From assembly GCA_963775695.1 (NCBI GenBank), contig CAVZJU010000003.1:141050-205049 (forward strand): a stretch of 64,000 bases of DNA, given 5' to 3'. Origin of the DNA: an uncultured Actinomycetes bacterium (GTDB lineage: Bacteria > Actinomycetota > Thermoleophilia > Gaiellales > Gaiellaceae). The translations under genes and the position numbers were made by a program. This document shows, in pieces, positions 5,511 to 24,418 of the stretch (position 1 is its first letter; each line of letters begins with the position of its first letter). The notes under the pieces were generated by a model, which saw only the letters and a program-made list of their open reading frames with translations, had not been told where the DNA came from and did not search any database.

Positions 5511-5588
5511 GGCGGCGGAGGAGTAAACGGGTTCCCGCGGCCGAGAACGGCCGAACGTCCTGGCCGGCACGTACGATCGCCGGGTCTC

Positions 5589-5635: not shown

Positions 5636-5651
5636 GAACCAGGAGGTGCCT

Positions 5652-5888: not shown

Positions 5889-5898
5889 GCGCGTTTCG

Positions 5899-6363: not shown

Positions 6364-6505
6364 GTTCGTGAGCTGGCCGGACAGCCCGAAGGAGTGCACC
6401 CGCTGCCGCTTCTCGCGCCCTTCGAGACGCCGTCGCGCGACGACGCCGGGTACGAGATCGTCGGCTGCTGCCGAAACCCCCGCATCGGCATGGACCTGTT
6501 CGCTT

Positions 6506-7768: not shown

Positions 7769-7793
7769 CGCCCGAGCGAGCCGTTCCGCGCGA

Positions 7794-9320
7794 TCAGCGG
7801 GCCGTCCGTGCCTCTGCGGCGTTCGACTCGATTCCGAAGACCCTGCGGTAGGAGTCCTCGCCGTAGCTCGTCGGGAGCGGCTCGCCCTTGACGATACGGA
7901 ATGTCCTTCGGCCGCCGCTCCCGCGTTCGGCACGCAGGAACAGGGTGGTGTCGAGGCGCTGCGCGTGCAGGGTGTGCGCAAGGTCGTAGAGGTGGGTGAC
8001 GAAGAAGACCTTCACCCCGGAGTCGAGCATCGCGCGGATCACCTGGCGGGCGATCTCGGAGCCTTCCCGCTCGTTGGTCGCGGCGAACGACTCGTTGCAG
8101 AGCAAGAGGCAGCCCGGGGTGATCTCATCGGCGATCGCGCTCATCCTGGCGAGCTCCTCGTCGAGCTTCCCGCTCTCCATCGATTCGTCCTCCTCGCGCT
8201 TGTAATGGGTGAAGACGCCGCTGACGACGCCGGCCCGGAGGAATGCAGCGGGGGCGAACAGCCCGCACTGCATCATCAGCTGCGCGATGCCCGTGCTCCG
8301 CAGGAACGTCGACTTGCCGCCCTGGTTCGCGCCCGTGATCATCACGAGCGACCTGCCGTCCGCGTCGACGTCGTTTCCGACCACGCGTGGATCGAGGTGC
8401 AACGAGAGCGCCGCGTCGTACAGGTTCTCGGCGCTGAAAGCAGTGGCATTCCGGTCGACCGGTTCGGGGAAGCAGATCGGCTCGCCCTTCTCCGTCAGCC
8501 TCGCGTGCAGGTTCAGCGCCCCGAGGTAGAAGGCGATCTCGGCCCGCAGGACGGTGAAGAAGCTGACGATGTGGTCGGTCGACTGGCCCACGGCGTTGGC
8601 GACCAGGTTGGTGCCCTTGCCGCGCAGGTCGTCGAGCGCCTTGAAACCCGCCTCGTCCCGCGGCGGGATCGTGAAGCTGCGGCTCGGCGGCCCCTGCCCG
8701 GGGATGCGCTCGAGCCAGCCTCGCCGGCGGGGACGGCGCAGAACGTGCCCCACGCCCCTGTTGGCCCTTCCCAGACGCGCGCTCATGAGCTCTCCGCGGT
8801 CGAACTTCAGCTCCTTCAGGTAGCGGCGGAGAACGCCGAGGTACTCGTCGTCGAGCTCGGCCCGGAGCATGCCGAAGAACCGCTCGAACGCGTCGGAACG
8901 GAAGCTCGGCGCTTCCTCGTCGGCGAGCTTACGCAGGCGCTCGAGGACGTCGACGAGCGCCTGCAGCACCTGCACCGAGCTGTGCAGGATCATCCCCGGC
9001 GACGCGTGCCTGAGGCCGAAGAACAGGCTTGCCTTCCGCGGCGCGTTGACGGCCTCGACGGCCAGGTCGTAGATCGCCCTGACGGTCGCTTCGTGGGCCA
9101 GGCAGTCGGCCAGGACCTGTTGCCGGTACCGGATCTCTTCCCGCGTTCGCAGGTTCGCGAGCAGACCCTTGCCGGCGATCCCGCGCAGGAAATCGTCGCC
9201 CGCGGCCATCGCCTCGACCAGGGTCTCCAGCTCGAGGTCCTGGATCAGCGCGTCGGCGTTGGCCGGTGGCTCGCGCTCGACGTCGAAGTCGCGGTCGGCG
9301 TGCATGAGGAAGACCCTCAT
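7794..9320 (-). CDS. MutS-domain-V ATPase (MutS-related, no mismatch-binding domain), paralog B
   Basis: ATG 9320 overlaps the upstream stop (ATGA). Walker A GANQGGKST. Walker-B region LLLCNESFAATNEREG (NE instead of DE). Confidence 0.85.
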   Translation of the reverse strand: MRVFLMHADRDFDVEREPPANADALIQDLELETLVEAMAAGDDFLRGIAGKGLLANLRTREEIRYRQQVLADCLAHEATVRAIYDLAVEAVNAPRKASLFFGLRHASPGMILHSSVQVLQALVDVLERLRKLADEEAPSFRSDAFERFFGMLRAELDDEYLGVLRRYLKELKFDRGELMSARLGRANRGVGHVLRRPRRRGWLERIPGQGPPSRSFTIPPRDEAGFKALDDLRGKGTNLVANAVGQSTDHIVSFFTVLRAEIAFYLGALNLHARLTEKGEPICFPEPVDRNATAFSAENLYDAALSLHLDPRVVGNDVDADGRSLVMITGANQGGKSTFLRSTGIAQLMMQCGLFAPAAFLRAGVVSGVFTHYKREEDESMESGKLDEELARMSAIADEITPGCLLLCNESFAATNEREGSEIARQVIRAMLDSGVKVFFVTHLYDLAHTLHAQRLDTTLFLRAERGSGGRRTFRIVKGEPLPTSYGEDSYRRVFGIESNAAEARTAR

Positions 9321-10870
9321 GACGCGACCCGCTCCCGCAGCCGTTCGTACGTGAGACCGTACTTCTCGGCGATCGCCCAGGCGTAGGCGCGTCCGTCGGC
9401 CGGCCGGCGGACGAGCTTGAAGGTCCGAAGGGCGGGATTCCCCGGAACGACGGTGCTGACCATGCTGACCGTCGCATCGCTGAGCGACGCGAGCTCGTCC
9501 ACGAAGGTGACGTAGACACCGAGCAGGTCCAGGTCGAGCAATGCCCTCAGCACCTCGGTCCCGATGAAGAGCGCGTCGCTCAGCGTCGTCGACCCGAAGC
9601 TCTCGTTCATGACGACCACGCTCTCCGGGGTCGCCTGCTCGAGGATCTCGTGGACGCGGACGAGCTCGTCGTCGAGCTTGCCGCGGAGCGTCTCGATGTC
9701 CTCCTCGCGCTCGAAGTGGGTGAAGATGCGGTCGGGCAGGAAGAGCCGTGCCGCACTCCCGGGGACGGGGAGGCCGAGACTGGCCAGATGGTGGAGCTGT
9801 CCGAACATGCGGGCGAAGGTCGTCTTGCCCCCGTTGTTCGGCCCGGTGACGACGATGCACCGTTCCGTCCCCCGAAGCTCGAGGTCGTTGCAGACCACCG
9901 TTCCCCGCTCGGAGACGAGCTTGAGCGCCAGGGCGAGGTCGAAGGTCTCCGACGCGGTGGTGTCCTTCGAGCGTGCCGAGACGTGCGGGAAGCAGAATCG
10001 CAGGCCGACCCGCTCGAGCGGCTCGATCAGCTCGAGATACGCGACGTAGAACTGAATCTCGCGGTCGAAGCGGACGATCGCCGGCTCCAGGAAGTCCGCG
10101 TGGCGGCTGCAGAAGGCGTCGAGGGCGCCGAACGGGTCCGGGTTCAGCTGCGCGACCAGGGCCAGGATCTGCCCTTCGACGTGGCTCATGTGCGGCCACT
10201 CGCGCAGCTCGAGGAGGTAGCTCTTCGCGGCCCCCTGCTTGAACCGGGCAAATGTCTGCTCGACCTCCGCGCTGTAGTCCGGTTCGCCCGCATACCCGGT
10301 GACGGTGACGCGGGGCCCGTTGATCTGGACGGCGTAGACGACCTCGCCGAGAGCCTCCTCGACCGTACGCCCCTCGGTCTCGAGCGAGGCAAAGGCGTCC
10401 GAGGCCACGTAGCTCTCGAGACAGGCGGCGAGGGACCGGAGGCCGCGGGATGTGACGTCGAGCGAGGAGAGCTCGTCGGCGAGGGTGCGGACGCTTGCGC
10501 AGTAGGTGCCGGCGGCGTCCAGGAACCAGCGCTCCCTCTCGAAGTGGTACCGCCGGTCGCCCGCCTGCGCCAGGTACGTCCGTGTCGTCCGCATCCGATC
10601 GGCGAACCGGCGCACCGAGGCCATCACCTGGTCGTTGCGCAGGTCGCGGACGACCTCGTGCCGGTAGCGGACCGTCTCCACGTCCCGTTGCGCTGCCTGG
10701 AAGAACGGCTCGAGCTCGTACTCCTCGCGCCCGGCGGTCAGCCCCGCCAGCACCTGGTCGAGGTTCAGGTCGGCGAAGGAGTCCGGCTCGGCGGTCGCCT
10801 CGCCAGCTGGCCGCCCCGGAAAGAGGACTGTTCGGAACTTCCCAGCTTCCCGCCCGTTGCGATCCGCCAT
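9317..10870 (-). CDS. MutS-domain-V ATPase (MutS-related), paralog A
   Basis: 517 aa. Walker A GPNNGGKTT. Walker-B region VVVMNESFGSTT. Start codon is 25 nt downstream of riboswitch copy 2. Confidence 0.85.
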   Translation of the reverse strand: MADRNGREAGKFRTVLFPGRPAGEATAEPDSFADLNLDQVLAGLTAGREEYELEPFFQAAQRDVETVRYRHEVVRDLRNDQVMASVRRFADRMRTTRTYLAQAGDRRYHFERERWFLDAAGTYCASVRTLADELSSLDVTSRGLRSLAACLESYVASDAFASLETEGRTVEEALGEVVYAVQINGPRVTVTGYAGEPDYSAEVEQTFARFKQGAAKSYLLELREWPHMSHVEGQILALVAQLNPDPFGALDAFCSRHADFLEPAIVRFDREIQFYVAYLELIEPLERVGLRFCFPHVSARSKDTTASETFDLALALKLVSERGTVVCNDLELRGTERCIVVTGPNNGGKTTFARMFGQLHHLASLGLPVPGSAARLFLPDRIFTHFEREEDIETLRGKLDDELVRVHEILEQATPESVVVMNESFGSTTLSDALFIGTEVLRALLDLDLLGVYVTFVDELASLSDATVSMVSTVVPGNPALRTFKLVRRPADGRAYAWAIAEKYGLTYERLRERVAS

Positions 10871-10894
10871 CCGCTTCCACCACCAGTAGGTTCG

Positions 10895-10941
10895 GTAGAA
10901 GCCATCAGCCGCTCTGGCGGTTTCAGGCGGGCTTCATCGCC
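10895..10941 (-). promoter_or_regulatory. fluoride riboswitch (crcB motif), copy 2
   Basis: Minus-strand sense: GGCGATGAAGCCCGCCTGAAACCGCCAGAGCGGCTGATGGCTTCTAC. Pseudoknot GAAGCC:GGCTTC is fully Watson-Crick. Confidence 0.85.
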
Positions 10942-11015
10942 GCTGACATCCTACCGCTGGCGGCCGTTCCCACGCCGGTCGCGGCCGGTTCTGCGTGCGG
11001 CTGGATTTCGTTGCA

Positions 11016-11064
11016 GCGCGATGAGGCTCCGCGCCCAACCGCCGCTCCGGCTGATGGCCTCTAC
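11016..11064 (+). promoter_or_regulatory. fluoride riboswitch (crcB motif), copy 3
   Basis: GCGCGATGAGGCTCCGCGCCCAACCGCCGCTCCGGCTGATGGCCTCTAC. Pseudoknot GAGGC:GCCTC. Divergent from copy 2. Confidence 0.8.
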
Positions 11065-11090
11065 CGACTGGCCCTCGAGGGGGAGTGGTG

Positions 11091-11210
11091 ATGGAGGTCA
11101 AGGTTCGGGCAATCGTCGTCTGCGGGAACCGGCTGCTGGTCACCCGCGAACGCCGCCGGGCAGCCGAGCACTCCTCGCTGCCGGGAGGTCGCGTCAAGCG
11201 CTGGGAGTAG
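11091..11210 (+). pseudogene. 39-codon NUDIX-hydrolase N-terminal stub
   Basis: Hand-found ATG 11091 to TAG 11210: MEVKVRAIVVCGNRLLVTRERRRAAEHSSLPGGRVKRWE. This reads like a NUDIX N-terminus up to LPGG, but the NUDIX box (GxxxxxExxxxxxxREUxEExGU) is absent. Confidence 0.35.
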
Positions 11211-11488
11211 CGGATGTCACCTGTGCGGTCGTAGTCCGCGAGGAGCGCTCGGACGCGCGCCGGCGTCTCCGACGGACCGGTGCAGGAGAACGCCAGCCTG
11301 GCGTCGCGACTGCTCTTTCCTGCTCGCCAGAACGACGACATCCAGCGCTCTTCGTCTTCGAAGATCGTCCGGCGGAGCGGACAGCCACTGCGAGCGAAGG
11401 GCTCGACGAGGTCGAGGGCCAGGAAATCGGCCACCGGAGAGGCCTCCCTCCCGGCTCCGGCCCGAGCCAGGTCGTCTCGTGCCTCCGC

Positions 11489-12001
11489 TCAGCCGCCGAG
11501 ACGCGCTGCGTACCGAGCCTGTGCCTGCTCGATCTCTCGCTCCGCTGCCTCGCGACCGGCCCAGCCCTCGATCGCCGTCAACCGCTCGGGCTCGAGCTCC
11601 TTGTAGACGGAGAAGAAATGTGCGATTTCGTCGCGGACGCGCGCGGAGACGTCGTCGAGCTCGTAGACGTCCCGCCACTCGGCATCGTGCAGCGGGACGC
11701 AGAGCACCTTGTCGTCGACGCCGGATTCGTCCCGCATCTGGAAGATGCCGATCGGCCTGACGTCGATTCTGCAGCCGGGGAACGTCGGCTCGCTGACCAG
11801 CACGAGCGCGTCGAGCTGCGCATCCATCTCGCGCTGACGCTGGCCGTGGTCGACCAGCGTGTCCTCCAGGAAGCCGTAGTCGGCCGGGAACACGACCGAC
11901 GAGAACAGGTGCCGATCGAGCCTGAAGACGCCCCTGCCCACATCCCACTCGTACTTGTTCTGGCTCCCCTTCGGCACTTCGACGAAGCAGACGAGCTCCA
12001 C
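11489..12001 (-). CDS. ppa: inorganic pyrophosphatase, family I (atypical metal-site region)
   Basis: VEVPKGSQNKYEWD, FPADYGFLEDTL, IRPIGIFQMRDESGVDDKVLCVP, IAHFFSVYKELE. An insertion and substitutions occur at the DxDxxD segment (see findings). Confidence 0.9.
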   Translation of the reverse strand: MELVCFVEVPKGSQNKYEWDVGRGVFRLDRHLFSSVVFPADYGFLEDTLVDHGQRQREMDAQLDALVLVSEPTFPGCRIDVRPIGIFQMRDESGVDDKVLCVPLHDAEWRDVYELDDVSARVRDEIAHFFSVYKELEPERLTAIEGWAGREAAEREIEQAQARYAARLGG

Positions 12002-12032
12002 GGCTACTCCTTGATCTCCTCGATACTCCGGA

Positions 12033-12470
12033 TCAATCCGCCGGCTCCTCCGATACGACCAGAACGGGTACCTCCGCCGAGGCGATCAGGCGCTCGGCCA
12101 CGCCGTGGAGGAGGAAGCGTCCGGGGCGGCGGCTGCGGTGATGGCCGACGATCACCAGGTCGAACCCGTGCTCACGCGCATAGTCGAGCAGGTCCTCCAC
12201 CGGATGGTCGCCTTCGATGATCTCCTGGCGGACGTCGACCCCGGCACGGTCGGCGCGGTCGAGGAAGTGGTCGAAGGTCTCCCTCAGGTACCTGGTCGCC
12301 GCATCGACCGATTCGGCGCGGTCGGCCTCGGTCTCCGCGTGGGCGGGGGAATGCGCGACGGACGCGGCGACGATGTCCGCCTGGTAGCGGCGGGCCAGAT
12401 CCAGCGCGAGGTCGAATGCACGCGCCGCGGGGCGTGAGCCGTCCCAGGCGATGAGGATTTCCTGGAACAT
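12033..12470 (-). CDS. universal stress protein (UspA family)
   Basis: ATG 12470 overlaps the upstream stop by 1 nt (TGATG). MFQEILIAWDGSRPAARAFDLALDLARRY...DLVIVGHHRSRRPGRFLLHGVAERLIASAEVPVLVV. Confidence 0.85.
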   Translation of the reverse strand: MFQEILIAWDGSRPAARAFDLALDLARRYQADIVAASVAHSPAHAETEADRAESVDAATRYLRETFDHFLDRADRAGVDVRQEIIEGDHPVEDLLDYAREHGFDLVIVGHHRSRRPGRFLLHGVAERLIASAEVPVLVVSEEPAD

Positions 12471-14440
12471 CAGTGACGGAGGGCTGGGATCATGGCGAGT
12501 GCTCCTAGCAGGACGAGAAGGACATACAGCAGGTAGAAGCCGAGCCGGCCCGACTGCAACCGGCGGGTGAAGCCGGAGAGCCGAAGGCCGGCGGCGACGA
12601 GCGGCTCGTACAGGTAGTGCTCGAAGGCCGGCACCACGCGCGTGGTGAGCATGAAGCGCTCCGGCTGCCTCCCGCCCCCCTCGGCGTGGATCGTCCTGCG
12701 AAATCCGTAGACACCGGCCAGGACGACGCGGATCGGATTGGTGTAGGCCTCTGGCGTGTATTGGACGACCGCGATGTCGGGTGCGGCGCCGGAGAGCCAC
12801 ACCGGCGCACGACGCACCGACGGCTTCAGGAGCACGCGGACGAGAAGGGCGGCCGCGATCAGGAACGTCGGGATCGCCAGCGCCAGCCACGTCGGCGAGA
12901 GGACCGAGAAGTTTCCGTAGACGGGGCCGAGGACCAGCGGGTGGGTGACGGCCGTGCCGGCCGGGTCGAAGCCGAGGACGCCGCTCAGCCCTTCGCCGAG
13001 CCAGCGGATCTCCCACGGCGCGGCCGCCCCGAGGAACAGCAGGGTGACGCCGAACGCGACGAAGCCGATGCCTCCCCGGCGGGCCTCGGGGGCCGGCTCC
13101 TGCGGGTGACGTGGACGCCCGAGGAAAATTCCACCGAAGAGGCGGGCGAAGGCGAGCAGCGCGATGCCGGCGGTGAGCGCGACCATCGCGCCACCGAGCG
13201 CCATGAACAGCTGCGCGTCCGAGTCCTTCAGACGAAACCCTTGCAGGAGCGCCTCCAGGGTGAACCACTCGCTGACGAATCCGCCGAATGGAGGCATCGC
13301 CGCAAGTGTGAGGACCGCGAGTCCGAAGCCCAGAGCCGTCCCCGGAAGCTTTGCCGCGAGGCCTCCGAGCGGCGCGGTCGTCCGCTCCCCGGTGGCCTCG
13401 GCGACGCTTTCCGCGCCCAGGAACGCCCCCGCCTTCGCGATTCCGTGCATGATCACGTGCAGGGTCGCGGCGAGGAGTCCCGCCGCCGCCAGCTCCGGCT
13501 CGTTGCTGCCCTGCCCGATGAGGGCGACTCCGAAGCCGAGGAGCGCGATGCCCCCGTGCTCGACGCTCGAGAAGCCGAGGAACCGCTTCACGTCGTCCTG
13601 CACCACCGCGTAGAGGATCCCGGCGATGGCACCCAGACCGCCCAGCACGATCAGCAGCTCTCCCCACCAGAGCGGCGCAGGTGCGAGCGTGCCGTAGACG
13701 AGGCGCCAGAGCCCGTAGAAGCCGCCGTTGAAGGCGACGGCGATCGTCGCCGCCGTCGCAGCGGGAGCAGCCTGGTACAGACCCGGGAGCGGCACCTGGA
13801 AGGGAAGCAACCCGATCTTGGTGCCGAAGCCGACGAGCAGGAGGACGAACGCGACGTCGCGGGTCGTGCCGAGGCCGGCCGCGGCGTGCTGCCAGGCGCT
13901 GAACTCGAAGCTTCCGGTCTGCCCGTAGAGCAGCCCGAAGGCGGCGAGGATCGCAGCACCGCCGATCTTGTTCACCGCCGAGGCGAAGTAGCCGGCCGCG
14001 AGCGCAGCCGGACGGTCGCGATCCAGGCTGCCGAGGATGTAGAGGCAGACGCTGAGGGTCTCCCAGGCGAGGAGGAAGACGAACCCCTGATTGGCGCCGA
14101 GGACGGCGGCGAGCGCAAGGATGACGAGGCTGTGGAGGGTCGCGGGCGACCGGCGAGTCGGACGCTCGGCGAGAGCGACGGACACTGCAGCGGCCGTCCC
14201 GCCGACCAGCGCGAGGAAGATGCCGCTGAGCCGGTCGGCGACGAGCGCGGAGGGGCCGAATCCGAGCCACGTCCCGAGACCCACGCGAGCTTCCGACCAC
14301 CCCCCCGCGCTGACGACTCCGACTGCGCAGAGGAGCGCGGATGCGACGGCCGCCGCACCCAGGGCCGGGCGAGGCCGGAGCAGGGCGAGTCCGGCTGCCC
14401 CGCAGAGCACGAGGAGGGCTGCTGCGAAGACGCCGTTCAC
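12470..14440 (-). CDS. HyfB/HycC-like (NuoL-like) antiporter-type membrane subunit
   Basis: 656-aa polytopic protein with proton-antiporter-like blocks (GFGTKIGLLPFQVPLPGLY, FLGFSSVEHGG). Confidence 0.85.
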   Translation of the reverse strand: MNGVFAAALLVLCGAAGLALLRPRPALGAAAVASALLCAVGVVSAGGWSEARVGLGTWLGFGPSALVADRLSGIFLALVGGTAAAVSVALAERPTRRSPATLHSLVILALAAVLGANQGFVFLLAWETLSVCLYILGSLDRDRPAALAAGYFASAVNKIGGAAILAAFGLLYGQTGSFEFSAWQHAAAGLGTTRDVAFVLLLVGFGTKIGLLPFQVPLPGLYQAAPAATAATIAVAFNGGFYGLWRLVYGTLAPAPLWWGELLIVLGGLGAIAGILYAVVQDDVKRFLGFSSVEHGGIALLGFGVALIGQGSNEPELAAAGLLAATLHVIMHGIAKAGAFLGAESVAEATGERTTAPLGGLAAKLPGTALGFGLAVLTLAAMPPFGGFVSEWFTLEALLQGFRLKDSDAQLFMALGGAMVALTAGIALLAFARLFGGIFLGRPRHPQEPAPEARRGGIGFVAFGVTLLFLGAAAPWEIRWLGEGLSGVLGFDPAGTAVTHPLVLGPVYGNFSVLSPTWLALAIPTFLIAAALLVRVLLKPSVRRAPVWLSGAAPDIAVVQYTPEAYTNPIRVVLAGVYGFRRTIHAEGGGRQPERFMLTTRVVPAFEHYLYEPLVAAGLRLSGFTRRLQSGRLGFYLLYVLLVLLGALAMIPALRH

Positions 14441-15207
14441 GCTGCTGCCTCCCGGGTGACGACGCCGGACGCCAGAAGCAGTCCGTGCAGGACCGCGATC
14501 GGGCTCGGCGGAGATCCCGGGACGTAGACGTCGACCGGGAGGACCCTGTCGACGCCGCCGGCCACTTCACCTGTCTGGGCTGCGAGACCGCCGGAGCAGG
14601 CGTCGGTACCGGCGGCGACGACCGCCTTGGGGTGCGGCATGACCTCGAATGCGCGAAGGAGGGGTGCCTCCATCGAGGGGGTGACTCCACCGGTGACGAG
14701 GAGGATGTCGGCGTGCCTCGGAGACAGCGTGAAGAAGAGGCCGAGGCGCTGCATGTCGTAGAAGGGGTTCGTCAGCGCGGCGATCTCCCACTCCTCGGCT
14801 CCGTCCGAGCCGGCGTCGACGTGCCTGACGTGGATCGAGCGGCGGAGCGTGCGCGACTGCTGTCCGAGGCTGCGACGCGGCTCGCCGGTCGCGCCTTCGG
14901 GATCGTTCACGACGAGCGCGCCGCGCCGGCGTGCTGCCGTCTCGTACTCGGGCTCGAATTCGAAGCGGCTCGGATCGGCGGCGACGCAGGCGCCGCAGAG
15001 GATGCAGCGGCCGCGGTCGACGGAGACGCGGCCGCCGCTGCTCCTGATCGCTCCGGTCGGGCAGACCGCTTCCAGACCTGCCGGCGCCGGCGTGTCGCTC
15101 CTGAGACCGACCCGGCCGCGAAAGCCGGGAGGGGCCGCCTCAGGACGCCGCGGGTATCGGGTCGTGACGATGCCGCGATGCAGGCCGCGGGGGATCCACT
15201 CCAGCAT
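14437..15207 (-). CDS. fusion of a HycF-like ferredoxin remnant and a HycG/NuoB-like small subunit; most FeS cysteines missing
   Basis: N-terminal part retains VCPTG...CILCGACVAADP. C-terminal part is NuoB-like (LSPRHADILLVTGGVT...PKAVVAAGTDACSGG...LPVDVYVPGSPPSP). It has GSDGAEEWE and PGSPP where the canonical motifs are GSCxxCE and PGCPP. Confidence 0.75.
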   Translation of the reverse strand: MLEWIPRGLHRGIVTTRYPRRPEAAPPGFRGRVGLRSDTPAPAGLEAVCPTGAIRSSGGRVSVDRGRCILCGACVAADPSRFEFEPEYETAARRRGALVVNDPEGATGEPRRSLGQQSRTLRRSIHVRHVDAGSDGAEEWEIAALTNPFYDMQRLGLFFTLSPRHADILLVTGGVTPSMEAPLLRAFEVMPHPKAVVAAGTDACSGGLAAQTGEVAGGVDRVLPVDVYVPGSPPSPIAVLHGLLLASGVVTREAAA

Positions 15208-16700
15208 CAGCGATCCGCTCCTGCCGGCGAGAGCCCGAAGCTGTGCTCGATGAACGAGAAGTCGGTGAGCACGTCGCCGCGGAAGCTGGCTGCGAAGAGC
15301 GGCCAGTTACGAAGCGACGGCGAGGAGATCCGCACCGTTCGCAGCCGACCCTCGTCCACCTCGACCCAGTAGACGAGCTCGCCCATCGGCGCCTCGGCCC
15401 AGCCGAACGCCGCTCCACTCTCGGCGGGAAGCTCGACCGTCAGCTCGCCGTCGTCCTTCTCGTCGCGCTCGAGCGACTGCCGGATCAGGTGGACACTCAC
15501 GCGGATCTCGTCGAGGCGGACCTCGAGACGGGCCATCGCGTCACACTCCTCGGCCGTGACCATCCGGAAGCCCAACCTCCGGTACGCGCCGTAGGGGCGC
15601 TCGAAGCGCGCATCGGTCGGGATCCCCGATCCGCGCGCGACGGGCCCGACGCCCGCATGGGCGTCGACCGTGGCGGGTTCGAGTGTGCCGCTTCCGATCA
15701 GACGGTCGGTGAACGAGGGTGTCCTCAGCAGGAGCCGTCGATCCCGGCGCACGTCGCGCTCGAGCTCGCTGAGAAACCGTCGTATCTCGCGGATCGGAAG
15801 CTGGGGCCCTCCGGCGACACCGCCGGTGACGATGACGCCTCGTCCGAAGCGACTGCCGCAGAGCCGCGCCCGCAGACGCATGACCTGCTCCTTGAGGATC
15901 CCGAATCGGGCGACCGCCACGGACAGGGCGGCGTCCTCTGCGAGCCGGGTGGCAACGTCGAGATGGTTCGCGATCCGCTCGAGCTCCGCGTGTACGACCC
16001 GCCAAAGCTGCGCCTTCGGCGGCGGTTCGACGCCGAGCGCACGCTCGACCGCGTGCGAGAAGGCGCACGCATGCGCGACCGACGCAATGCCGGCTACGCG
16101 CTCGGCGACCGTCGTCCCGTCCCCGGGGGTGCGACCGTTGAAGCGGCTCTCGAGCCCCCGCCGCTTGAAATACGGCCGGACCTCCAGTGCCAGGACGTCT
16201 TCGCCGCCCGTCTCGATCACGTACTGGATCGACTCGAAGACTCCGGAACGGATCGGCCCGTAGGGGATGACGAACGTCCCCTCGCCCTCCACCCGGCGGC
16301 GAAGGTTGTCCGGATCGGGGCGGACGGCCGGGGCCAGGTCCGGATGCCCGAGAGGAATGAGACCGTGGAGGTCGTGCAACTCCCGCTCCGGGAAGCGAAA
16401 TGCCGGTGACATCAGTGCAAGTGACGGAAACGACGACGTCCGGTCGATCGACGCCAGGAGGGCGACCAGCTGTCCGCGCACCGCGAAGGCGACGGCGAGG
16501 GACCGCTCCGGCTCGTCCGTGACGAACATCGCGACGAGCCGGGCGCGACGTTCGAGCAGGAGCGCCGCCGCCCGGTCGATCACTCCGATCGGCAGTCGTA
16601 GGCGCTGCTCGCCGAGCGGAGCCGGTTCGCCGACTGCGCGAAAGCGACCGTCGAGGAACTCGTGTGCGTCGCCTGCGAGCATTGCGTTCTCGGCGGTCAT
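15207..16700 (-). CDS. HycE/HyfG-like (NuoC-NuoD fusion type) 'large subunit' lacking both NiFe CxxC motifs
   Basis: ATG 16700 overlaps the upstream stop (ATGA). AERVAGIASVAHACAF replaces R-x-C-G-x-C-x-x-x-H. The C-terminus ...SFIEHSFGLSPAGADR replaces D-P-C-x-x-C-x-x-R. Only 3 isolated Cys in 497 aa. Confidence 0.85.
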   Translation of the reverse strand: MTAENAMLAGDAHEFLDGRFRAVGEPAPLGEQRLRLPIGVIDRAAALLLERRARLVAMFVTDEPERSLAVAFAVRGQLVALLASIDRTSSFPSLALMSPAFRFPERELHDLHGLIPLGHPDLAPAVRPDPDNLRRRVEGEGTFVIPYGPIRSGVFESIQYVIETGGEDVLALEVRPYFKRRGLESRFNGRTPGDGTTVAERVAGIASVAHACAFSHAVERALGVEPPPKAQLWRVVHAELERIANHLDVATRLAEDAALSVAVARFGILKEQVMRLRARLCGSRFGRGVIVTGGVAGGPQLPIREIRRFLSELERDVRRDRRLLLRTPSFTDRLIGSGTLEPATVDAHAGVGPVARGSGIPTDARFERPYGAYRRLGFRMVTAEECDAMARLEVRLDEIRVSVHLIRQSLERDEKDDGELTVELPAESGAAFGWAEAPMGELVYWVEVDEGRLRTVRISSPSLRNWPLFAASFRGDVLTDFSFIEHSFGLSPAGADR

Positions 16701-18160
16701 CGGGCGGCGAGCTGGTCGGCGGCGTGTCCGAGGAGCGTCGAGAGTCCGCTCGGAACGTGCAGGCCGAGGCCGACGACGACGACGAGGCAGGCTGCCATCC
16801 CGGCGACCATCGTCCAACTCGCCTCGCCGCGAGGGGCCCCGGGCGCTGCAGGCGAGAACACCATCCTGCCGGCGTGCCAGACGACCCCGAGGAACGCCAC
16901 GTTGACGAAGACGAGCAGCATCGTCACCCAGACGTACCCGGGGGTCGCGAAACCCCCGCTGACGATCTGGAACTCGCTTCGGAAGATGCCCGAGACGGGC
17001 AGACCGCTGAGCGCGAGGACTGCCACGAGAAACATCGGGCCGGAGACCGGCAGGGCTTGGGCCGCACCCTGCACGGAGTCGATCTCCTTGCTCCCGAAGC
17101 GTCTCAGGATCGAACCCGTGCCGAAGAAGGCCATCCCCTTCGCGGCGGCGTGGTTGAGCACGTGCAGGAGTGCGCCGGCGACCGCGATGCGCACGCCGAA
17201 GCCGATGCCGACCGCGATCACGCCCATGTGCTCGATCGTCGAGTAGGCGAGGAGCCGCTTGTAGTTCTCCTGCCGGAGAACGAAGAGCGCCGCCACGAGC
17301 AGCGATGCGGTTCCGAACACGAGCAGGACGTGGCGCGGAAAGTCCTGTCCGACTGCGAGGGCGGTCACCTGGTAGAAGCGGAGGATGGCGTAGAGGGCAT
17401 TCGCGAGCAGCGCCCCGGAGAGGAGCGCCGACACGGGGCTCGGTGCCTCGCTGTGCGCGTCCGGGAGCCAGGCGTGGAGCGGGGCGAAGCCCGCCTTGGT
17501 GCCGAATCCGACCACCGCCAGGAGGAACGCGATCTCGACCTCGGTCGCCGGCAGCTGCCCGCCGACCGAGAGATATCGCGTGAACCGCGGGATGTACGCC
17601 TGGCCGAGTGCGTTCGTTCCCGAGGCGTACAGGATGATCACCGCGAGGAGGGCGATGCCGAGCCCCACGGACGCGATCAGGACGTACTTCCACGCCGCCT
17701 CGAGCGCCGCGTCCGTCCGTTCCAGCGCGACCAGGAGAACCGAGACGATCGTGGTCAGCTCGACCGCCACCCACAGCGTGGCGAAGTCGTTCATCAGTGG
17801 GACGAGCAGCATCGTCCAGCCGAAGAGGTTGAGGTAGCCGAAGTACTTGCGGGCGAACGAGTCACGGCCGTGGTGATGCGCTCCCGCCCGCAGGAATCCG
17901 ATCGAGAAGACGCTCCCCGCCGCATACAGGAAGCTGCTTGCGAGAAGGAACACCGCTCCAAGGGAATCGAGGCGGAGCCACCCGCTGGCGGTCGTCAGAG
18001 GCACGTCATTGCGAACAGAGACAGCGGCGCTGAGCGCGAGTGCAAAGCAGGCACCCCCCGCTGCGGCGGTCGCGAGCTCGGCCGCACGCGGTGAGCCGAG
18101 AAAGGCAACCGCTGAGCCGGCCAGCGGTACGAGGACCAGGGCGATGAGGACGGCGCTCAT
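16697..18160 (-). CDS. HyfF/HyfD-like (NuoM/N-like) antiporter-type membrane subunit
   Basis: 487 aa. GFGTKAGFAPLHAWLPDAHSEAPSPVSALLSG and LAYSTIEHMG are typical of NuoM/N/MrpD-type subunits. Confidence 0.85.
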   Translation of the reverse strand: MSAVLIALVLVPLAGSAVAFLGSPRAAELATAAAGGACFALALSAAVSVRNDVPLTTASGWLRLDSLGAVFLLASSFLYAAGSVFSIGFLRAGAHHHGRDSFARKYFGYLNLFGWTMLLVPLMNDFATLWVAVELTTIVSVLLVALERTDAALEAAWKYVLIASVGLGIALLAVIILYASGTNALGQAYIPRFTRYLSVGGQLPATEVEIAFLLAVVGFGTKAGFAPLHAWLPDAHSEAPSPVSALLSGALLANALYAILRFYQVTALAVGQDFPRHVLLVFGTASLLVAALFVLRQENYKRLLAYSTIEHMGVIAVGIGFGVRIAVAGALLHVLNHAAAKGMAFFGTGSILRRFGSKEIDSVQGAAQALPVSGPMFLVAVLALSGLPVSGIFRSEFQIVSGGFATPGYVWVTMLLVFVNVAFLGVVWHAGRMVFSPAAPGAPRGEASWTMVAGMAACLVVVVGLGLHVPSGLSTLLGHAADQLAAR

Positions 18161-18161
18161 C

Positions 18162-19790
18162 TCAGCCGCGAAGCCGGTTCAGCACGTCAGTCGTGACCGA
18201 GGTGCGCTGGACGCTGAAGTACTGGACGAGGAGGACGAAGACCAGGAGCCCGATGAAGACGTCGAAGAGCAGGAGCAGGGCGAGGATCAGGGGAAGGCTG
18301 GGGGCGATGACCAGGGCCGCGAGGGTGACCCCGTTCTCGAGCACGAGGAAGCCGATCACCTGCGACGGCGCGTAGGGCCGGAGGATCATCAGGAGCAGTG
18401 CGACCAGCACGATCGCAACCGCAATGCCGAGCGCCTCCAGCGGGAGCGCTCCCTGGTGATCGAGATGGAGCCGTGAGAGGGCGATGAAGCTGAAGCTGGA
18501 GAGGACGATGCCGAGCAGCGCTGCGCTCGGCACCCGCACCGTCGACGGGACGCGCATGGACACGTCCAGCCTCGTAATGGTCGCCCCGATCGCGAGCGGG
18601 ATGGCGATCGTCTTGAAGGCGATCGTGATCGCCCCGATCACCCACAGATCGGCGTGGTGGAGCTTCGCCGCCGCTGCGAACGCGACGATTGCGACAGCGG
18701 CGGAACCGAGGCCGTACAGCCGCAGCTGCCCCCGGATGTCCTGCGTGCGTAGGAGTGCGAACTCGAGCAACAGGACGGTGACTGCGACGACGCTCGCGAT
18801 GCCGCCGAACACGGTGAGGTGGACGGTCCCGTACTGTCGCTGGAGCACGAACGTGATCACGGCCAGGACGGCGAAGAGAAAGCCGGCCACGGTGAACTCG
18901 GGGATCTTGTAAAGGCGCAGCTTCGCGAACGACGACTCGATGACGACGATCGCGGCTCCGACGACGAGCGCCTTCCCGAACAGAATCGCGATCGCCAGGA
19001 GGACGCTGTCGAGCCGCCGGTCCCCCGCCAGGCCCCACGGCGCGGTGAGGACGTTGGCGAGGATGACGAAGAGGATCATCTGCTTCATCGACGAGCCCCA
19101 CTTGAGCAGGGCGTAGCCGGGGCCGGAGTGCTCGAGCGTCCGGCCTTCCTCGATCATCCCGAACTCCAGGGTGGCCCCGTGGTTCTCCAGTGGGATCCGC
19201 CCGGTCTCGGAGATGACGACCATGAAGAACGCTGCCGCGGCGAGAAGATGAGCGGGCCGGAAGACCTCGACCGCGGACGACTTGAGCGTCGCGGCGAAGG
19301 CGTAGGGGAGGTCGGTGCCCGTGATGAGCGCGACCGAGAAGATGACGAAGATGATCGTCGGCTCGCCGAGCGCGCCGAACGTGCGGAGCCGGCTCGAGCC
19401 GAGCTGGGTATACGGGCTGCCGCTGTCGATAGCGGCCAGCGAGACGGCATAGCTTGCGAGCCCGAGCACGAAGCCGCCGCCGAGGATGTCCCCCATGTAG
19501 GCCGGTTGGGGCGGGAAGTCCGTCAGCACCGGGATCAGGAGCGGGACAACGCAGTAGCAGGCGAAGGCGACGTAGGGAGCGATCCGGAACACCGGCCCTG
19601 CCCCGTCCGGAAGGACCGTCTCCTTCCGGAAGAACTTGGCGATGTCGTGGTAGGGCTGGAGCAGCCTGGGCCCGTGCCGTCCCTGCACCAGGGCCTCGGC
19701 CCGGGCGATGACACCGGTGACCAGCGGCGAGACGAGCAGGATCGTCCCCAGCTGGAAAGCCTGGATCAGTCCGTCGCTCAGCTGCGGCAT
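18162..19790 (-). CDS. HycD/HyfC-like (NuoH-like) subunit fused to a HyfE-like (NuoK-like) membrane module
   Basis: 542 aa. N-terminal ~300 aa: LVSPLVTGVIARAEALVQGRHGPRLLQPYHDIAKFFRKE...EFGMIEEGRTLEHSGPGYALLKW (HycD-like). C-terminal ~220 aa are multi-TM and HyfE-like. First gene after riboswitch copy 4. Confidence 0.8.
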   Translation of the reverse strand: MPQLSDGLIQAFQLGTILLVSPLVTGVIARAEALVQGRHGPRLLQPYHDIAKFFRKETVLPDGAGPVFRIAPYVAFACYCVVPLLIPVLTDFPPQPAYMGDILGGGFVLGLASYAVSLAAIDSGSPYTQLGSSRLRTFGALGEPTIIFVIFSVALITGTDLPYAFAATLKSSAVEVFRPAHLLAAAAFFMVVISETGRIPLENHGATLEFGMIEEGRTLEHSGPGYALLKWGSSMKQMILFVILANVLTAPWGLAGDRRLDSVLLAIAILFGKALVVGAAIVVIESSFAKLRLYKIPEFTVAGFLFAVLAVITFVLQRQYGTVHLTVFGGIASVVAVTVLLLEFALLRTQDIRGQLRLYGLGSAAVAIVAFAAAAKLHHADLWVIGAITIAFKTIAIPLAIGATITRLDVSMRVPSTVRVPSAALLGIVLSSFSFIALSRLHLDHQGALPLEALGIAVAIVLVALLLMILRPYAPSQVIGFLVLENGVTLAALVIAPSLPLILALLLLFDVFIGLLVFVLLVQYFSVQRTSVTTDVLNRLRG

Positions 19791-19823
19791 CCGTCCCGAC
19801 GTCTCCTTGCCCTCGACTACGAG

Positions 19824-19891
19824 CTAGAAGCCATCAGCCGTCGGAACGGCGGTTCGGAGCGGGGGCCGCTCCCGCCAGAGCTTCATCTGGC
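19824..19891 (-). promoter_or_regulatory. fluoride riboswitch (crcB motif), copy 4, with an extra inserted hairpin
   Basis: Minus-strand sense: GCCAGATGAAGCTCTGGC-GGGAGCGGCCCCCGCTCC-GAACCGCCGTTCCGACGGCTGATGGCTTCTAG. Same core blocks. An 18-nt GC hairpin is inserted between P1 and the AACCGCC block. Confidence 0.8.
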
Positions 19892-20034
19892 GTCGCCAGC
19901 GTAGCGAATCGCCGACGCGGTCCGGACGGTACCGGACACGCAGGACGCAGACCTGGAACCCGAACTCCAGGCGCGCCGCCACCGGCCGAGACGGTTGGAC
20001 CGGCCCTGTTCGGCTAGGCTGATTCCACACCGGT

Positions 20035-20080
20035 CGCGATGAGGCCCGCGCTCAACCGCCTTCGGGCTGATGGCTTCTGT
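20035..20080 (+). promoter_or_regulatory. fluoride riboswitch (crcB motif), copy 5
   Basis: CGCGATGAGGCCCGCGCTCAACCGCCTTCGGGCTGATGGCTTCTGT. Divergent from copy 4. Followed by GGGAGG and ATG 20115. Confidence 0.8.
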
Positions 20081-20114
20081 GTCTTCTTCGGGTTCGCTCC
20101 AGGGAGGCGGACGT

Positions 20115-20540
20115 ATGAGTCATCTCGCGCCGGATTCAGCCGGAAGTGCCCAGGTCGAGATCGACGTCGACCCGGCTGGGCTCGACGAGCTTCGCGGCCG
20201 GGCAGGCGACGCAGCACCGACCGCGGACGAGGACCTGCTCCGATACCTCGTGTACCTGGGCGCCGGCTACCTGGAGACCGAGGCAGTCTCTGCGGCTGCC
20301 CCGAGCGTCCACGAGGCCTATGCGCGCCTCGACCGCATGCATGCTGCCGTGGAGGGGCACTCGTCGGTCCTGAGTTTCCACTACGGCGAGTCGGCGCGAG
20401 AGTTCGCCGAAGAGGAGAGGGCACACGCGGCTCACGAGCGAAGCGCCGGAGCCTACGAGGGGCTTGTCGAGAAGCTCGAGGCGGAGATCGCAGCCCGGGA
20501 AAAGCGAGTCGTCAGGCTGAAACGAGCGCTCGAGCAATGA
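20115..20540 (+). CDS. hypothetical protein (acidic, C-terminal coiled-coil-like), first gene after riboswitch 5
   Basis: ATG 20115 is preceded by GGGAGGCGG. Product MSHLAPDSAGSAQVEIDVDPAGLDELRG...LVEKLEAEIAAREKRVVRLKRALEQ. High GC3. No family recognised. Confidence 0.6.
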   Translation: MSHLAPDSAGSAQVEIDVDPAGLDELRGRAGDAAPTADEDLLRYLVYLGAGYLETEAVSAAAPSVHEAYARLDRMHAAVEGHSSVLSFHYGESAREFAEEERAHAAHERSAGAYEGLVEKLEAEIAAREKRVVRLKRALEQ

Positions 20541-21067: not shown

Positions 21068-22498
<1,431 letters not shown>

Positions 22499-22499
22499 G

Positions 22500-23549
22500 T
22501 GTAGTTCCTGAACACGTTGGTTCATCCGGGCCTCCTTGGAGGCTGAGGGCTGCCAGGCACTCAGACTCAAGGAGGCATCCGGATGAGGCTTCACGGTAAC
22601 GCGGCTCTCAGTTGGAGCGGTCGGCGGCGGCTGGCCGAGCGCGTTGTTGTTCAGGGCTGGACGGTGAGTGCTGCCGCTGAGGCTGCCGGTGTCAGTGTCG
22701 GTTGCGCTCGCAAGTGGGTGAGCCGCTACCGGCTCGAGGGTGAGACGGGCTTGTGCGACCGTTCCTCGGCCCCTCGCCGAGTCTGGAATCGGACAGCGCC
22801 GGAGCGTGTTGAGGCGGTGATCGCGCTTCGGCGGCTGCGGATGACCGCAGCGGAGATCGCCGAGCTGCTTGGGATGGCGCTCTCGACCGTGTCAGGGATC
22901 CTGGCTCGGTGCGGAATCGGTCGTCTCGGTCGGATCGGGCTCGAAGCAGCTCGCCGATATGAGTACTCGCGGCCCGGTGAGCTCGTGCACATCGACGTGA
23001 AGAGACTCGGTCGAATCGAGGGTGCTGCTGGCAAGCGCATCAGCGGACGGCCCCACTCGCAGTACATGCCGAGGCGCACCGATGCCGCCGGCAGCCGGCG
23101 GAACACGGTCGGCTGGGAGTACGTCCACATCGCCGTCGACGACTACAGTCGCCTTGCCTACGCCGAGGTCCTCAACGACGAGAAAGCCGCTACCGCAGCC
23201 GGCTTCCTGCGTCGCGCTCTCCGCTACTACCGCCGCCACGGAATCCAAGTCGAGCGGATCCTGACCGACAACGGCTCCTGCTACCGCGCCGCGATCCACG
23301 CAGTCGCTTGCAGGGCCCTCGGCATCCGCCACAGCCGAACCCGCCCCTACCGGCCACAAACAAACGGCAAGGCCGAGCGCTTCATCCGCACTCTCCTCCA
23401 CGGGTGGGCCTACGGCGCGATCTACCGCTCAAGCCAAGAACGAACCGCGGCACTTGACGGCTGGCTCAGGCACTACAACCATCGCAGACGACACTCAGCC
23501 CTCGGCCACCAACCCCCGGTCAGCAGAACCAACCTGCTCGGGTCCTACA
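22500..23549 (+). mobile_element. IS481-family insertion sequence, apparently intact, with 6-bp target-site duplication ACTAGG
   Basis: IRL TGTAGTTCCTGAACACGTTGGTT (22500-22522) versus the reverse complement of 23527-23549, TGTAGGACCCGAGCAGGTTGGTT (18/23 identical). Flanks are ACTAGG at 22494-22499 and 23550-23555. Confidence 0.85.
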
Positions 23550-23554
23550 ACTAG
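22583..23554 (+). CDS. IS481-family transposase (DDE, rve domain)
   Basis: 323 aa: HTH N-terminus, HIDVKRLG, WEYVHIAVDDYSRLAY, TDNGSCY, RPYRPQTNGKAERF. The ORF reads through IRR and stops at the TAG within the duplicated CTAG. Confidence 0.9.
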   Translation: MRLHGNAALSWSGRRRLAERVVVQGWTVSAAAEAAGVSVGCARKWVSRYRLEGETGLCDRSSAPRRVWNRTAPERVEAVIALRRLRMTAAEIAELLGMALSTVSGILARCGIGRLGRIGLEAARRYEYSRPGELVHIDVKRLGRIEGAAGKRISGRPHSQYMPRRTDAAGSRRNTVGWEYVHIAVDDYSRLAYAEVLNDEKAATAAGFLRRALRYYRRHGIQVERILTDNGSCYRAAIHAVACRALGIRHSRTRPYRPQTNGKAERFIRTLLHGWAYGAIYRSSQERTAALDGWLRHYNHRRRHSALGHQPPVSRTNLLGSYN

Positions 23555-24022: not shown

Positions 24023-24418
24023 ATGCGGCCCGTCCGGACGGAGGACGAGGGTGAGCTCTTCGCAGTCGCGAAGCTCGCCTTCGCGGACTGCGACGAGGGA
24101 CGCACGCTCGCGGCCCTCACGCGGGACACCGTCTTCGTCGCCGAGCTGGCAGGAGAGACCGCCGGCTACGTCGCGATCGAGGAATCCACTGCCAGGCTTC
24201 GGATCGAACAACTCTGTGTGCATCCGGCTCACGAGAAGGAGGGGGTCGGCAGGCAGCTGCTCGAGTGGGCCGAGGGGTACGCGATCTCGAACGGTGCGGG
24301 CCGCCTCGAAGTCGTCGTCGAGCGCGGGAACGACCGCGCCGAGTCCTTCTACCGGGGCCGCGGTTTCGTGCCGGCCGGGCCGGAACTGCTCGAGCTCGTC
24401 CTTCCGCAGGGTCAGTAG
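24023..24418 (+). CDS. GNAT-family N-acetyltransferase
   Basis: MRPVRTEDEGELFAV...LCVHPAHEKEGVGRQLLEWAE...FYRGRGF (acetyl-CoA binding R/Q-x-x-G-x-G/A-like segment). Confidence 0.8.
   Translation: MRPVRTEDEGELFAVAKLAFADCDEGRTLAALTRDTVFVAELAGETAGYVAIEESTARLRIEQLCVHPAHEKEGVGRQLLEWAEGYAISNGAGRLEVVVERGNDRAESFYRGRGFVPAGPELLELVLPQGQ

Follow-up and report, generated by a model that had tools for sequence, protein, structure and literature searches.

The stretch of DNA analysed here (the window: 64,000 nucleotides (nt), positions 141,050 to 205,049 of contig CAVZJU010000003.1 in assembly GCA_963775695.1) comes from an uncultured bacterium of the Gaiellaceae. Its minus strand carries a tightly packed operon with overlapping stop and start codons, in which a putative membrane complex is encoded together with a stress protein. 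The sequence of the third gene product identifies it as the large-subunit homologue in a membrane complex of the Ehr type (energy-converting hydrogenase-related). From the leader downstream, the following features were assigned:

19823-19892, minus: fluoride-riboswitch aptamer variant of 70 nt, 32 nt upstream of the ATG of the first gene
18162-19790, minus: NuoH/HycD-like subunit fused to a HyfE/NuoK-like C-terminal half, 542 residues (Pfam NADHdh; HycD 7z0s_D, 4e-40)
16697-18160, minus: antiporter-like subunit of the HyfF/NuoN/MrpD type, 487 residues (Pfam; alignments to MbsH and MbhH)
15207-16700, minus: large-subunit homologue (NuoC-like plus HycE/NuoD-like), 497 residues (translation, Pfam, alignments, dN/dS)
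14437-15207, minus: HycF/NuoI-like ferredoxin domain fused to a HycG/NuoB-like small subunit, 256 residues (Pfam Oxidored_q6 and Fer4)
12470-14440, minus: antiporter-like subunit of the HycC/HyfB/NuoL type, 656 residues (Pfam Proton_antipo_M; HycC 7z0s_C, 2e-39)
12033-12470, minus: universal stress protein (USP), the sixth gene of the operon (Pfam Usp, 3e-28)

Translation of 15207-16700 yields a single uninterrupted open reading frame (ORF) of 497 residues plus stop, which carries the string AERVAGIASVAHACAF in the L1 region, the block ELERIANHL and the C-terminal end FSFIEHSFGLSPAGADR. Pfam assigns residues 54-129 to Complex1_30kDa (NuoC-type), residues 181-246 to NiFeSe_Hases, where the match comprises only the first 66 positions of the model, that is its N-terminal piece, and residues 270-415 to Complex1_49kDa. 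The best HMMER match among solved structures is E. coli HycE (7z0s_E, E 1.5e-45), followed by P. furiosus MbhL (6cfw_L, 7e-30) and T. thermophilus Nqo4 (6e-28). Together with the Pfam domains, the HycE and MbhL matches establish overall homology to the group-4 large subunits.

The ligands of the NiFe centre are missing from this otherwise recognizable protein. In the HMMER alignments RVAGIASVAHA stands opposite RVCGICGFAHS of HycE and RMCGICSFSH of MbhL, with both Cys of the L1 motif RxCGxCxxxH replaced by Ala (A203, A206). The L2 motif DPCxxCxx(H/R) was located with a MAFFT alignment of the query and the 150 best representatives of 50%-identity clusters, taken from an exhaustive HMMER scan. 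Here the two Cys columns hold S491 and G494, and GLSPAGADR of the query lies opposite LCYSCLDR of the Cys-bearing relatives. Cys at all four ligand columns was found in 20 of the 150 representatives (e.g. RICGACAASH ... LCYSCLDR) and three Cys in 2 more; by this alignment, the window protein sits within a very large Cys-less radiation. In total the large subunit contains three Cys (C212, C281, C386) and no CxxC. With these replacements the large subunit cannot ligate a NiFe centre.

The original prediction, made from the letters alone, had described a hydrogenase-like large subunit of 497 residues at this position, with the NuoC-like N-terminal domain and ELERIANHL retained, the N-terminal Cys pair changed to Ala, the C-terminal pair changed to Ser and Gly beside a preserved D-R, three scattered Cys and no CxxC. 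Translation, the homology to HycE and NuoCD, the Pfam domains, the alignment columns and the Cys count bear out this description throughout. It had also allowed that its hand alignment might be offset, which is not the case, as the 20 relatives hold Cys in exactly those columns.

Could the protein be a genuine [NiFe] hydrogenase or formate hydrogen lyase (FHL) subunit, whose Cys only appear to be missing through misalignment, a frameshift or selenocysteine? Automatic annotation points that way, the labels at the source being 'formate hydrogenlyase subunit 5' or 'Ni,Fe-hydrogenase III large subunit', and HycE is the best match in the PDB. Misalignment is refuted by three independent alignments, all with non-Cys residues at the ligand columns where the 20 relatives show CCCC. 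Because the four ligand positions are sense codons, none of them TGA, in a continuous ORF, selenocysteine recoding and a frameshift are excluded as well, and the whole protein has no more than three Cys. Furthermore, the small subunit lacks its cluster (see below), no FdhF, HycB or HyfA partner was found in the operon or its conserved synteny, and the large subunit ends on D-R without a C-terminal extension; presumably, the protease-cleaved extension of HycE starts right after this D-R, matching the end point of the query. The chance that a working hydrogenase is encoded here is practically negligible. Among the annotated neighbours, which cover only part of the 64-kb window, no hyp-like gene was found.

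The quinone site of complex I is not found either. In the alignment to Nqo4, H38 corresponds to F155 and Y87 to G204 of the query; we take His38 in the beta1-beta2 loop and Tyr87 to be the quinone-binding residues of Nqo4.

Cys-less large subunits of group 4 form an established category, termed Ehr (PMC10284858, PMC4378227, PMC6349859, PMC12342949), and the loss of Cys in the large subunit alone is not new. The window conforms to the definition of this category by a group-4-like large subunit without the NiFe-binding Cys (PMC10284858, PMC4378227) and, by Pfam and synteny, by co-encoded small-subunit-like, NuoH-like and Mrp/Nuo antiporter-like subunits. Ehr has been reported in Sulfobacillus (PMC4378227), Nitrospira (PMC10284858, PMC12342949), Margulisbacteria and relatives (PMC6349859) and bacteria of the candidate phyla radiation (CPR; PMC7304191), and its function is stated to be unknown throughout this literature (PMC4378227, PMC10284858, PMC12342949, PMC6349859, PMC7304191).

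In the window, the loss of cofactor ligands extends to the fused small subunit, whose best solved-structure match is HycG (7.5e-31). Alignment to HycG and MbhJ places Asp, Glu, Asp and Ser at the four positions of the Cys that ligate the proximal [4Fe-4S] cluster. Relative to the CNGC, GAC and PGC motifs, CNGC has become DGAE, GAC has become GTD and PGC has become PGS. For comparison, the Cys-retaining homologue of the related locus L038 (47% identical; related genome loci carry L numbers here) reads GSCNACE, GAC and PGCPP where the window protein reads GSDGAEE, GTD and PGSPP. The ferredoxin domain likewise lacks its first CxxCxxC, and the second motif is without its final Cys. One four-Cys site remains, made up of C49 (in the 'CP' of motif 1) and C68xxC71xxC74. 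From the ligation pattern of Nqo9 and the complex I structure we take this site to be the equivalent of N6b, a position that would lie about two cluster-hops from the old active site. The proximal ligands are lost in 30/30 loci with readable sequence, in which the four ferredoxin-domain Cys are also conserved; the Asp/Glu/Asp/Ser set is not strict, since L027 has G and D variants. The loss is found in the Pseudonocardiales L025 (Amycolatopsis) and L026 (Sciscionella), in a Propionibacteriales metagenome-assembled genome (MAG; L027), in the Acidimicrobiales locus L031 and in L036 (50% identical). Because the proximal-cluster ligands are lost and only one four-Cys site is kept, no conventional electron wire is predicted to reach the former active site. 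On this evidence the NiFe site, the proximal cluster and the quinone site are all lost, and a single predicted cluster is left without an electron acceptor.

These results bear directly on the alternative that the complex is still a redox enzyme, in which electrons, supplied e.g. by ferredoxin, would enter through the remaining [4Fe-4S] cluster and reach a non-NiFe site or substrate of a new kind, and this transfer would power ion pumping as in Ech, MBH or MBS. The invariance of the four ferredoxin-domain Cys speaks for such an enzyme, as does the fact that no part of the protein is better conserved than the C-terminal region standing in place of L2. Moreover, the riboswitch-linked L038 and the archaeal Ehr loci L033 and L034 keep the full three-cluster chain, and for Ehr the literature supposes a redox reaction yet to be identified (PMC6349859). 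Against it stand the replacement of all four proximal ligands in every readable locus and the missing quinone ligands; no dehydrogenase, ferredoxin or NuoEFG partner was found in the operon or among its conserved neighbours. The retained site, if correctly taken as N6b, would also be remote from the old active site. In addition, the residues that replace the active site vary across the wider fluoride-linked clade, the tail being EHS...ADR in Thermoleophilia versus EAS...VAG in Acidimicrobiia and Pseudonocardiales. Altogether, we consider continued redox catalysis distinctly unlikely. A new catalytic site marked by the E-H-S...A-D-R tail was considered and is not claimed, the H and the D-R being lost in the Acidimicrobiia and Pseudonocardiales orthologues.

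Despite these losses all six genes of the operon are under purifying selection. Against the closest genome locus L001, at an unsaturated dS of 0.38, dN/dS amounts to 0.22 for the large subunit and to 0.06, 0.14, 0.17, 0.16 and 0.10 for its five operon partners, the last value belonging to the USP. Intact orthologues were found in 30 genome loci (41-85% identity) inside a conserved six-gene operon. Cys is missing from the four ligand columns in each of the 120 closest 90%-identity clusters (60-98% identity), whose named members are Gaiellaceae and other Thermoleophilia MAGs. Across an alignment of 22 diverse members 110+ positions are invariant, and the C-terminal 22 residues, DVLTDFSFIEHSFGLTPAGADR, form the best-conserved stretch of the large subunit.

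A decaying remnant without function might be suspected from the loss of cofactor ligands in two subunits and from frameshifts in some related MAG loci. It is contradicted by an omega of about 0.2 at unsaturated dS, by the number of invariant residues and by an operon whose translationally coupled overlaps and riboswitch are conserved across three actinobacterial classes. The pseudogene reading is thereby refuted, and decay is very improbable. The frameshifted loci (L015, L029, L030) stem from long-read MAGs, and because several operon genes appear affected at once, the frameshifts look like assembly error, not decay. The original prediction had proposed a maintained, repurposed subunit rather than a decaying pseudogene and named dN/dS as a check; the value obtained, the orthologues and the invariant residues support that proposal.

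As far as the subunits can be read, the membrane arm is intact while the electron wire is lost. The 487-residue antiporter-like subunit retains the Glu of VAVELTT and the Lys of GFGTKAG and NHAAAKG, and in the 656-residue subunit the Glu of transmembrane helix (TM) 5 and the Lys residues align with HycC. Both antiporter-like subunits thus show the conserved TM5 Glu and TM7/TM12 Lys typical of Mrp (CPA3), which distinguish functional Mrp/Nuo modules. The NuoH/HyfE-like subunit, too, retains its conserved Glu and Lys. The subunit set of Mrp, MrpA-G without a peripheral arm, is not what Pfam finds here, as a NuoH-like subunit and a cap are present. The C-terminal half of the 542-residue NuoH fusion is 32% identical to a separate 221-residue subunit of Methanomassiliicoccus luminyensis.

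The USP gene adjoins the complex in 25/30 bacterial loci and also stands beside archaeal Ehr clusters. Adjacent copies lie at L033 10645-11061, L034 10392-10826, L036 11837-12295, L031 14159-14596 and window 12033-12470, while L025-L027 and L038 have no adjacent copy. Because the USP gene adjoins an Ehr-type cluster in archaea that have no riboswitch, the USP link looks older than the fluoride link.

The enolase, pyrophosphatase and MutS-like genes near the operon suggested the regulon of the fluoride riboswitch and prompted an Rfam scan. In the region upstream of the operon, a permissive scan returned an RF01734 match on the minus strand (19818-19885; 21.4 bits, E 0.004). By eye, all conserved elements of the aptamer are present, namely P1 (GCCAG...CUGGC), the linker AACCGCC, P2 and GGCUGAUGGCUUCUA, and the loop AUGAAGCU pairs with the 3' GGCUUC. 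The window copy carries an extra hairpin of 18 nt between P1 and the AACCGCC linker; in relatives this insert measures 16-23 nt and in Acidimicrobiales 46 nt. This variant precedes the first gene by 27-47 nt in 21 Thermoleophilia loci; an Acidimicrobiales locus has it with the longer insert. Its Rfam scores of 21-32 bits, against a gathering score of 34, mean that it is missed by standard annotation. Copies were found, among others, at L001 4808-4877, L002 4805-4872, L008 4796-4866, L018 4763-4826 and L031 4783-4877.

The fold of the variant is well supported by its alignment, in which 91.5% of the cells pair, compared with 25-54% in slid controls. Compensatory changes occur in 5/6 pairs of the inserted hairpin, and the covariation score was reached by 0/500 shuffles. 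A covariance model of our own (R1) scores the window copy at 87.8 bits and detects the element in held-out loci, each time just before the first gene (L013 82, L008 71, L018 62 and L031 40 bits). On the archaeal loci R1 gave no match. Altogether, a fluoride aptamer stands directly before the orthologous operon in about 27 related loci. In Amycolatopsis L025, Sciscionella L026, L023 and L038 it is a canonical aptamer, above the gathering score at 45.8 bits in L025, 45.3 bits in L026 and 43 bits in L038. On these grounds the 5' leader of the window operon is assigned an RF01734 aptamer. In the predicted apo fold the 5' strand of P2, CCGUUCCGACG, pairs with CGUCGGGACGG immediately before the AUG, and the downstream segment matching P2 changes together with P2 in other loci. 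In terms of this model, the layout of the leader is that of a translational ON switch. A sigma-70 promoter scan of the operon gave no match above chance.

One locus holds a rearranged copy of the operon. In L005, the parts at 4074-8300 and 8345-13512 each stand behind a variant riboswitch of their own (71.8 and 75.7 bits); short H, N and L gene fragments flank an intact unit of large subunit, small subunit and USP, and a complete H, N, L set then follows.

Besides the aptamer of the operon itself, the window contains four RF01734 matches above gathering. The island of genes around them is outlined below:

5580-5641, plus: fluoride riboswitch (RF01734, 47.1 bits), followed by a small ORF and a HAD-family hydrolase at 5899-6363 (Pfam Hydrolase)
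10889-10950, minus: fluoride riboswitch (RF01734, 50.2 bits), followed by two MutS-domain-V ATPases and an MFS transporter
11008-11070, plus: fluoride riboswitch (RF01734, 38.0 bits), with no intact gene downstream
11489-12001, minus: inorganic pyrophosphatase directly downstream of the operon, a recurrent neighbour (Pfam, 4e-46)
20026-20086, plus: fluoride riboswitch (RF01734, 36.4 bits), divergent from the operon and followed by an ORF and enolase
21176-22498, plus: enolase downstream of the 20026 riboswitch (Pfam Enolase_N and Enolase_C)

Pyrophosphatase and enolase are classic targets of fluoride, and both genes recur within a few kb of the operon in three actinobacterial classes. The two MutS ATPases consist of domain V only (10870-9317, 517 residues; 9320-7794, 508 residues), overlap by 4 nt and are followed by the MFS transporter at 7768-6506. 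Among the related loci the MutS-like pair recurs in 15, the MFS transporter in 10 and the HAD hydrolase in 6. Enolase, pyrophosphatase and HAD-type phosphatases are typical members of fluoride regulons, in which Na+/H+ antiporters, tied to pH homeostasis, are the second commonest riboswitch-associated class (PMC11139923).

Several smaller features accompany this island. Behind the 11008 riboswitch, an ORF of 41 codons (11085-11210, plus) with a Nudix-like start (VRAIVV...LPGGRV) runs into a stop; this riboswitch may belong to a decayed gene or be an orphan switch opposite the pyrophosphatase gene, whose 3' end it faces. The stretch from the 20026 riboswitch to enolase holds an ORF of 156 codons (20070-20540, plus) that has no Pfam match, is conserved only in the closest genome L001 (76% identity) and leaves a gap of about 630 nt before the enolase start. 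Right after enolase, at the edge of the island, an IS481-family transposase was found (22583-23554, plus; LZ_Tnp_IS481 and rve), and just outside it a CopC-CopD fusion ORF (24051-26387, plus) beside cupin and GNAT acetyltransferase genes.

A link between this riboswitch and hydrogenase-like genes has been noted before. The crcB motif was described upstream of mutS, of ion-transport genes and of 'genes encoding formate hydrogen lyase' (Weinberg 2010, PMC2864571), and the riboswitch-linked FHL genes have been read as true FHL signalling a shift to fermentation (PMC11139923). The association of fluoride riboswitch and 'FHL' is therefore already known. Judged by gene content, the complex described here is the 'formate hydrogen lyase' that has figured in the fluoride regulon for years, and its residues rule out a hydrogenase, an FHL and a quinone reductase alike. 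In the literature on the fluoride riboswitch and hydrogenase, complex I or Mrp, outside Baker et al. 2012 and Marreiros et al. 2013, we found no work linking them, and within the same scope no recognition that this 'FHL' is of the Ehr type without NiFe binding, or lacks the Fe-S path in Actinomycetota.

The direct control by the riboswitch also raises the alternative of a fluoride-handling device. In such a device the emptied NiFe/proximal pocket, or the Asp/Glu/Asp/Ser site together with Mg2+, would bind F-, and the antiporter modules would expel F- at the expense of the proton-motive force (pmf), or the pocket would gate the pump. In its favour, the metal ligands have given way to small residues (Ala, Ala, Ser, Gly) beside conserved Arg, His, Glu and Ser, and the cluster ligands to three carboxylates plus Ser. 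Searching all six frames for the CrcB signature GGxTTFSTF gave 0 matches in the 64-kb window, where a divergent copy could escape the motif, and 11 in relatives. Against this, six related loci combine the operon with CrcB: as pairs of CrcB (Fluc) genes near the operon in L003, L011, L025, L026 and L028, and, in L036, as a single CRCB gene (139 residues) that shares the gene string of the operon and follows USP, a pyrophosphatase-domain protein and an MFS transporter. Because of this co-occurrence the complex does not appear to replace Fluc. Furthermore, only 64 kb of the genome of the window are in view, the carboxylate set varies in L027, and to our knowledge anion transport is without precedent in the superfamily. 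A dedicated fluoride-handling device is thus improbable.

Related lineages allow the losses to be placed. Two archaeal Ehr loci were compared, L033 from M. luminyensis and L034 from Methanoperedens. Their large subunits are Cys-less and about 36% identical, and their subunit set is that of the window with the USP adjacent. Their NuoB-like subunits retain GSCNGCE, GSCA and PGCPP, and their separate ferredoxin subunits retain eight Cys. Because these Cys are retained, the loss of the Fe-S wire does not appear general to Ehr and is, on present alignments, specific to the clade of the window. The locus L038 (4603-4662; 9620-10372) has a canonical fluoride riboswitch before the operon and a Cys-less large subunit of 40% identity. 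Since it combines the riboswitch with all cluster Cys, fluoride control is, by this comparison, not restricted to members without clusters.

Further hydrogenase-like clusters were noted beside some of these operons. Immediately upstream of the main operon, L020 (500-4558) and L030 (45-4400) carry a second, divergent paralogous cluster on the minus strand, whose identity to the window is 34-37% for the large subunit, 42-46% for the antiporter-like and 45-46% for the NuoH-like subunit. A separate Ech-type cluster, in which the small subunit has a normal Cys pattern, adjoins the Cys-less Ehr cluster of M. luminyensis (L033 11195-16348). In M. tuberculosis, Rv0082-Rv0087 have been called a putative [NiFe] hydrogenase (PMC6901956); a homologue search seeded with P0135 returned Acidimicrobiales MAGs and no mycobacteria.

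We conclude that the operon probably encodes a fluoride-induced, redox-independent, Mrp-like ion translocator. Counting the secure parts, identity and regulation, together with the function, we put the probability of this reading at roughly 0.55; taken by itself, the specific transport role, which draws on analogy, falls somewhat short of even odds. The Mrp-like role is parsimonious because the redox driver is missing while the NuoH-like subunit and two antiporter modules remain. According to this proposal, fluoride would switch the operon on via the translational ON switch, the ligand-stabilised P2 and pseudoknot releasing the sequence beside the Shine-Dalgarno site and the AUG. Entering as hydrogen fluoride (HF), it would acidify the cytoplasm and free F-, which blocks enolase and pyrophosphatase. 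The cell would respond by making more of both enzymes together with the Ehr-type complex, whose NuoH-like subunit and two antiporter modules would move protons or cations along existing gradients for the homeostasis of pH and membrane potential. The hydrogenase-derived cap would then serve as a structural or regulatory lid or plug, possibly acting with the co-encoded USP.

A number of observations weigh against this proposal. The ion-translocator role is read from the anatomy of the complex and from its regulon. Conservation of the cap subunits is strong, down to a nearly invariant stretch of 22 residues at the end of the large subunit in Thermoleophilia; this suggests that the cap is more than a passive plug, and a conserved four-Cys site remains. 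The aptamer of the window operon scores below the Rfam gathering score (21.4 vs 34 bits), because of the inserted hairpin. L038 stands under a fluoride riboswitch and keeps the proximal-cluster Cys as well as the eight ferredoxin Cys (three Fe-S sites); the fluoride-linked group may therefore descend from redox-active ancestors, and redox chemistry need not be irrelevant to it. L038 suggests that the riboswitch linkage preceded the Fe-S loss, and redox independence would then be a later simplification. Finally, typical Mrp antiporters acidify rather than alkalinise the cytoplasm, a direction that may not benefit a cell under HF stress.

A bolder version, which we regard as rather unlikely, would see a branch of the complex I/hydrogenase family turned into a fluoride-defence machine, the emptied pocket sensing or binding fluoride, perhaps as Mg-F at the carboxylate site, in coupling with pmf-driven F- export or proton pumping on demand. 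If true, this would be the first physiological role of the Ehr family and a natural example of complex-I-type coupling driven or gated by ligand binding and not by electron transfer.

Beyond the known Cys-less large subunit, the present analysis adds a second and a third loss of cofactors, the contrast to the archaeal Ehr, and a consistent control by the fluoride riboswitch that includes an insertion-bearing aptamer variant. Ehr is widespread, with members in Nitrospira, Sulfobacillus, CPR bacteria, Margulisbacteria, relatives of methanogens and many soil Actinomycetota. Its function is still called unknown in papers up to 2025. The consistent placement of one large clade behind fluoride riboswitches offers a cheap experimental entry. 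The function of at least one Ehr clade becomes testable in culturable strains, namely Amycolatopsis silviterrae CGMCC 4.7641 and Sciscionella marina DSM 45152, and the control by fluoride provides a concrete physiological context for the 'repurposing'. The riboswitch-linked 'formate hydrogen lyase', ranked with the commonest genes behind this riboswitch and hitherto read as a fermentation switch, is predicted from its residues to be unable to make hydrogen in the members examined, which changes how the fluoride stress response is to be modelled. Since cap and coupling subunits stay under selection after the loss of the electron wire, the clade also provides a natural test of the communication between peripheral and membrane arm.

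Compared with known systems, the complex shares with Ehr the large subunit without the L1/L2 Cys, the NuoB-, ferredoxin-, NuoH- and HyfE-like and two antiporter-like subunits and, with the archaeal examples compared, an adjacent USP. It differs from these archaeal examples, which keep the proximal Cys and eight ferredoxin Cys and lack a fluoride riboswitch, in that the window clade is without the proximal cluster and one of the ferredoxin clusters, has several of its subunits fused and stands under riboswitch control. The E. coli FHL (Hyd-3/Hyd-4, with HycE/HyfG; 7Z0S) provides the best structure matches for the HycE, HycG, HycC and HycD homologues, and in subunit make-up the window complex comes close to the Hyf core (B, C, E, F, G, H, I); unlike this enzyme, it has no NiFe ligands, no proximal cluster, no FdhF/HycB/HyfA input module and no cleaved C-terminal extension, and by its residues it can neither make nor use H2. 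With the riboswitch-linked 'FHL' genes it has in common the aptamer in the 5' leader and the co-clustered genes for enolase, pyrophosphatase, a mutS-like protein, a HAD hydrolase, transporters and, in relatives, crcB, whereas the reading of those genes as true FHL does not fit a complex without NiFe and, in its clade, without the proximal cluster. The Q-module of complex I (NuoCD/NuoB/NuoI) and MBS/MBX of P. furiosus correspond to the cap in fold and position and are precedents for reusing the hydrogenase site with another substrate (quinone, polysulfide). They keep the N2/proximal cluster and the ferredoxin clusters that are missing in the window, and complex I in addition the Q-binding His and Tyr absent here. 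As far as analogy goes, Mrp (CPA3) is the best functional counterpart: it is a non-redox relative of the membrane arm, with MrpA/MrpD-type subunits that carry the same conserved Glu and Lys. It differs from the window complex in having neither a NuoH-like subunit nor a NuoB/C/D/I-like cap, while the window has no MrpB, E, F or G.

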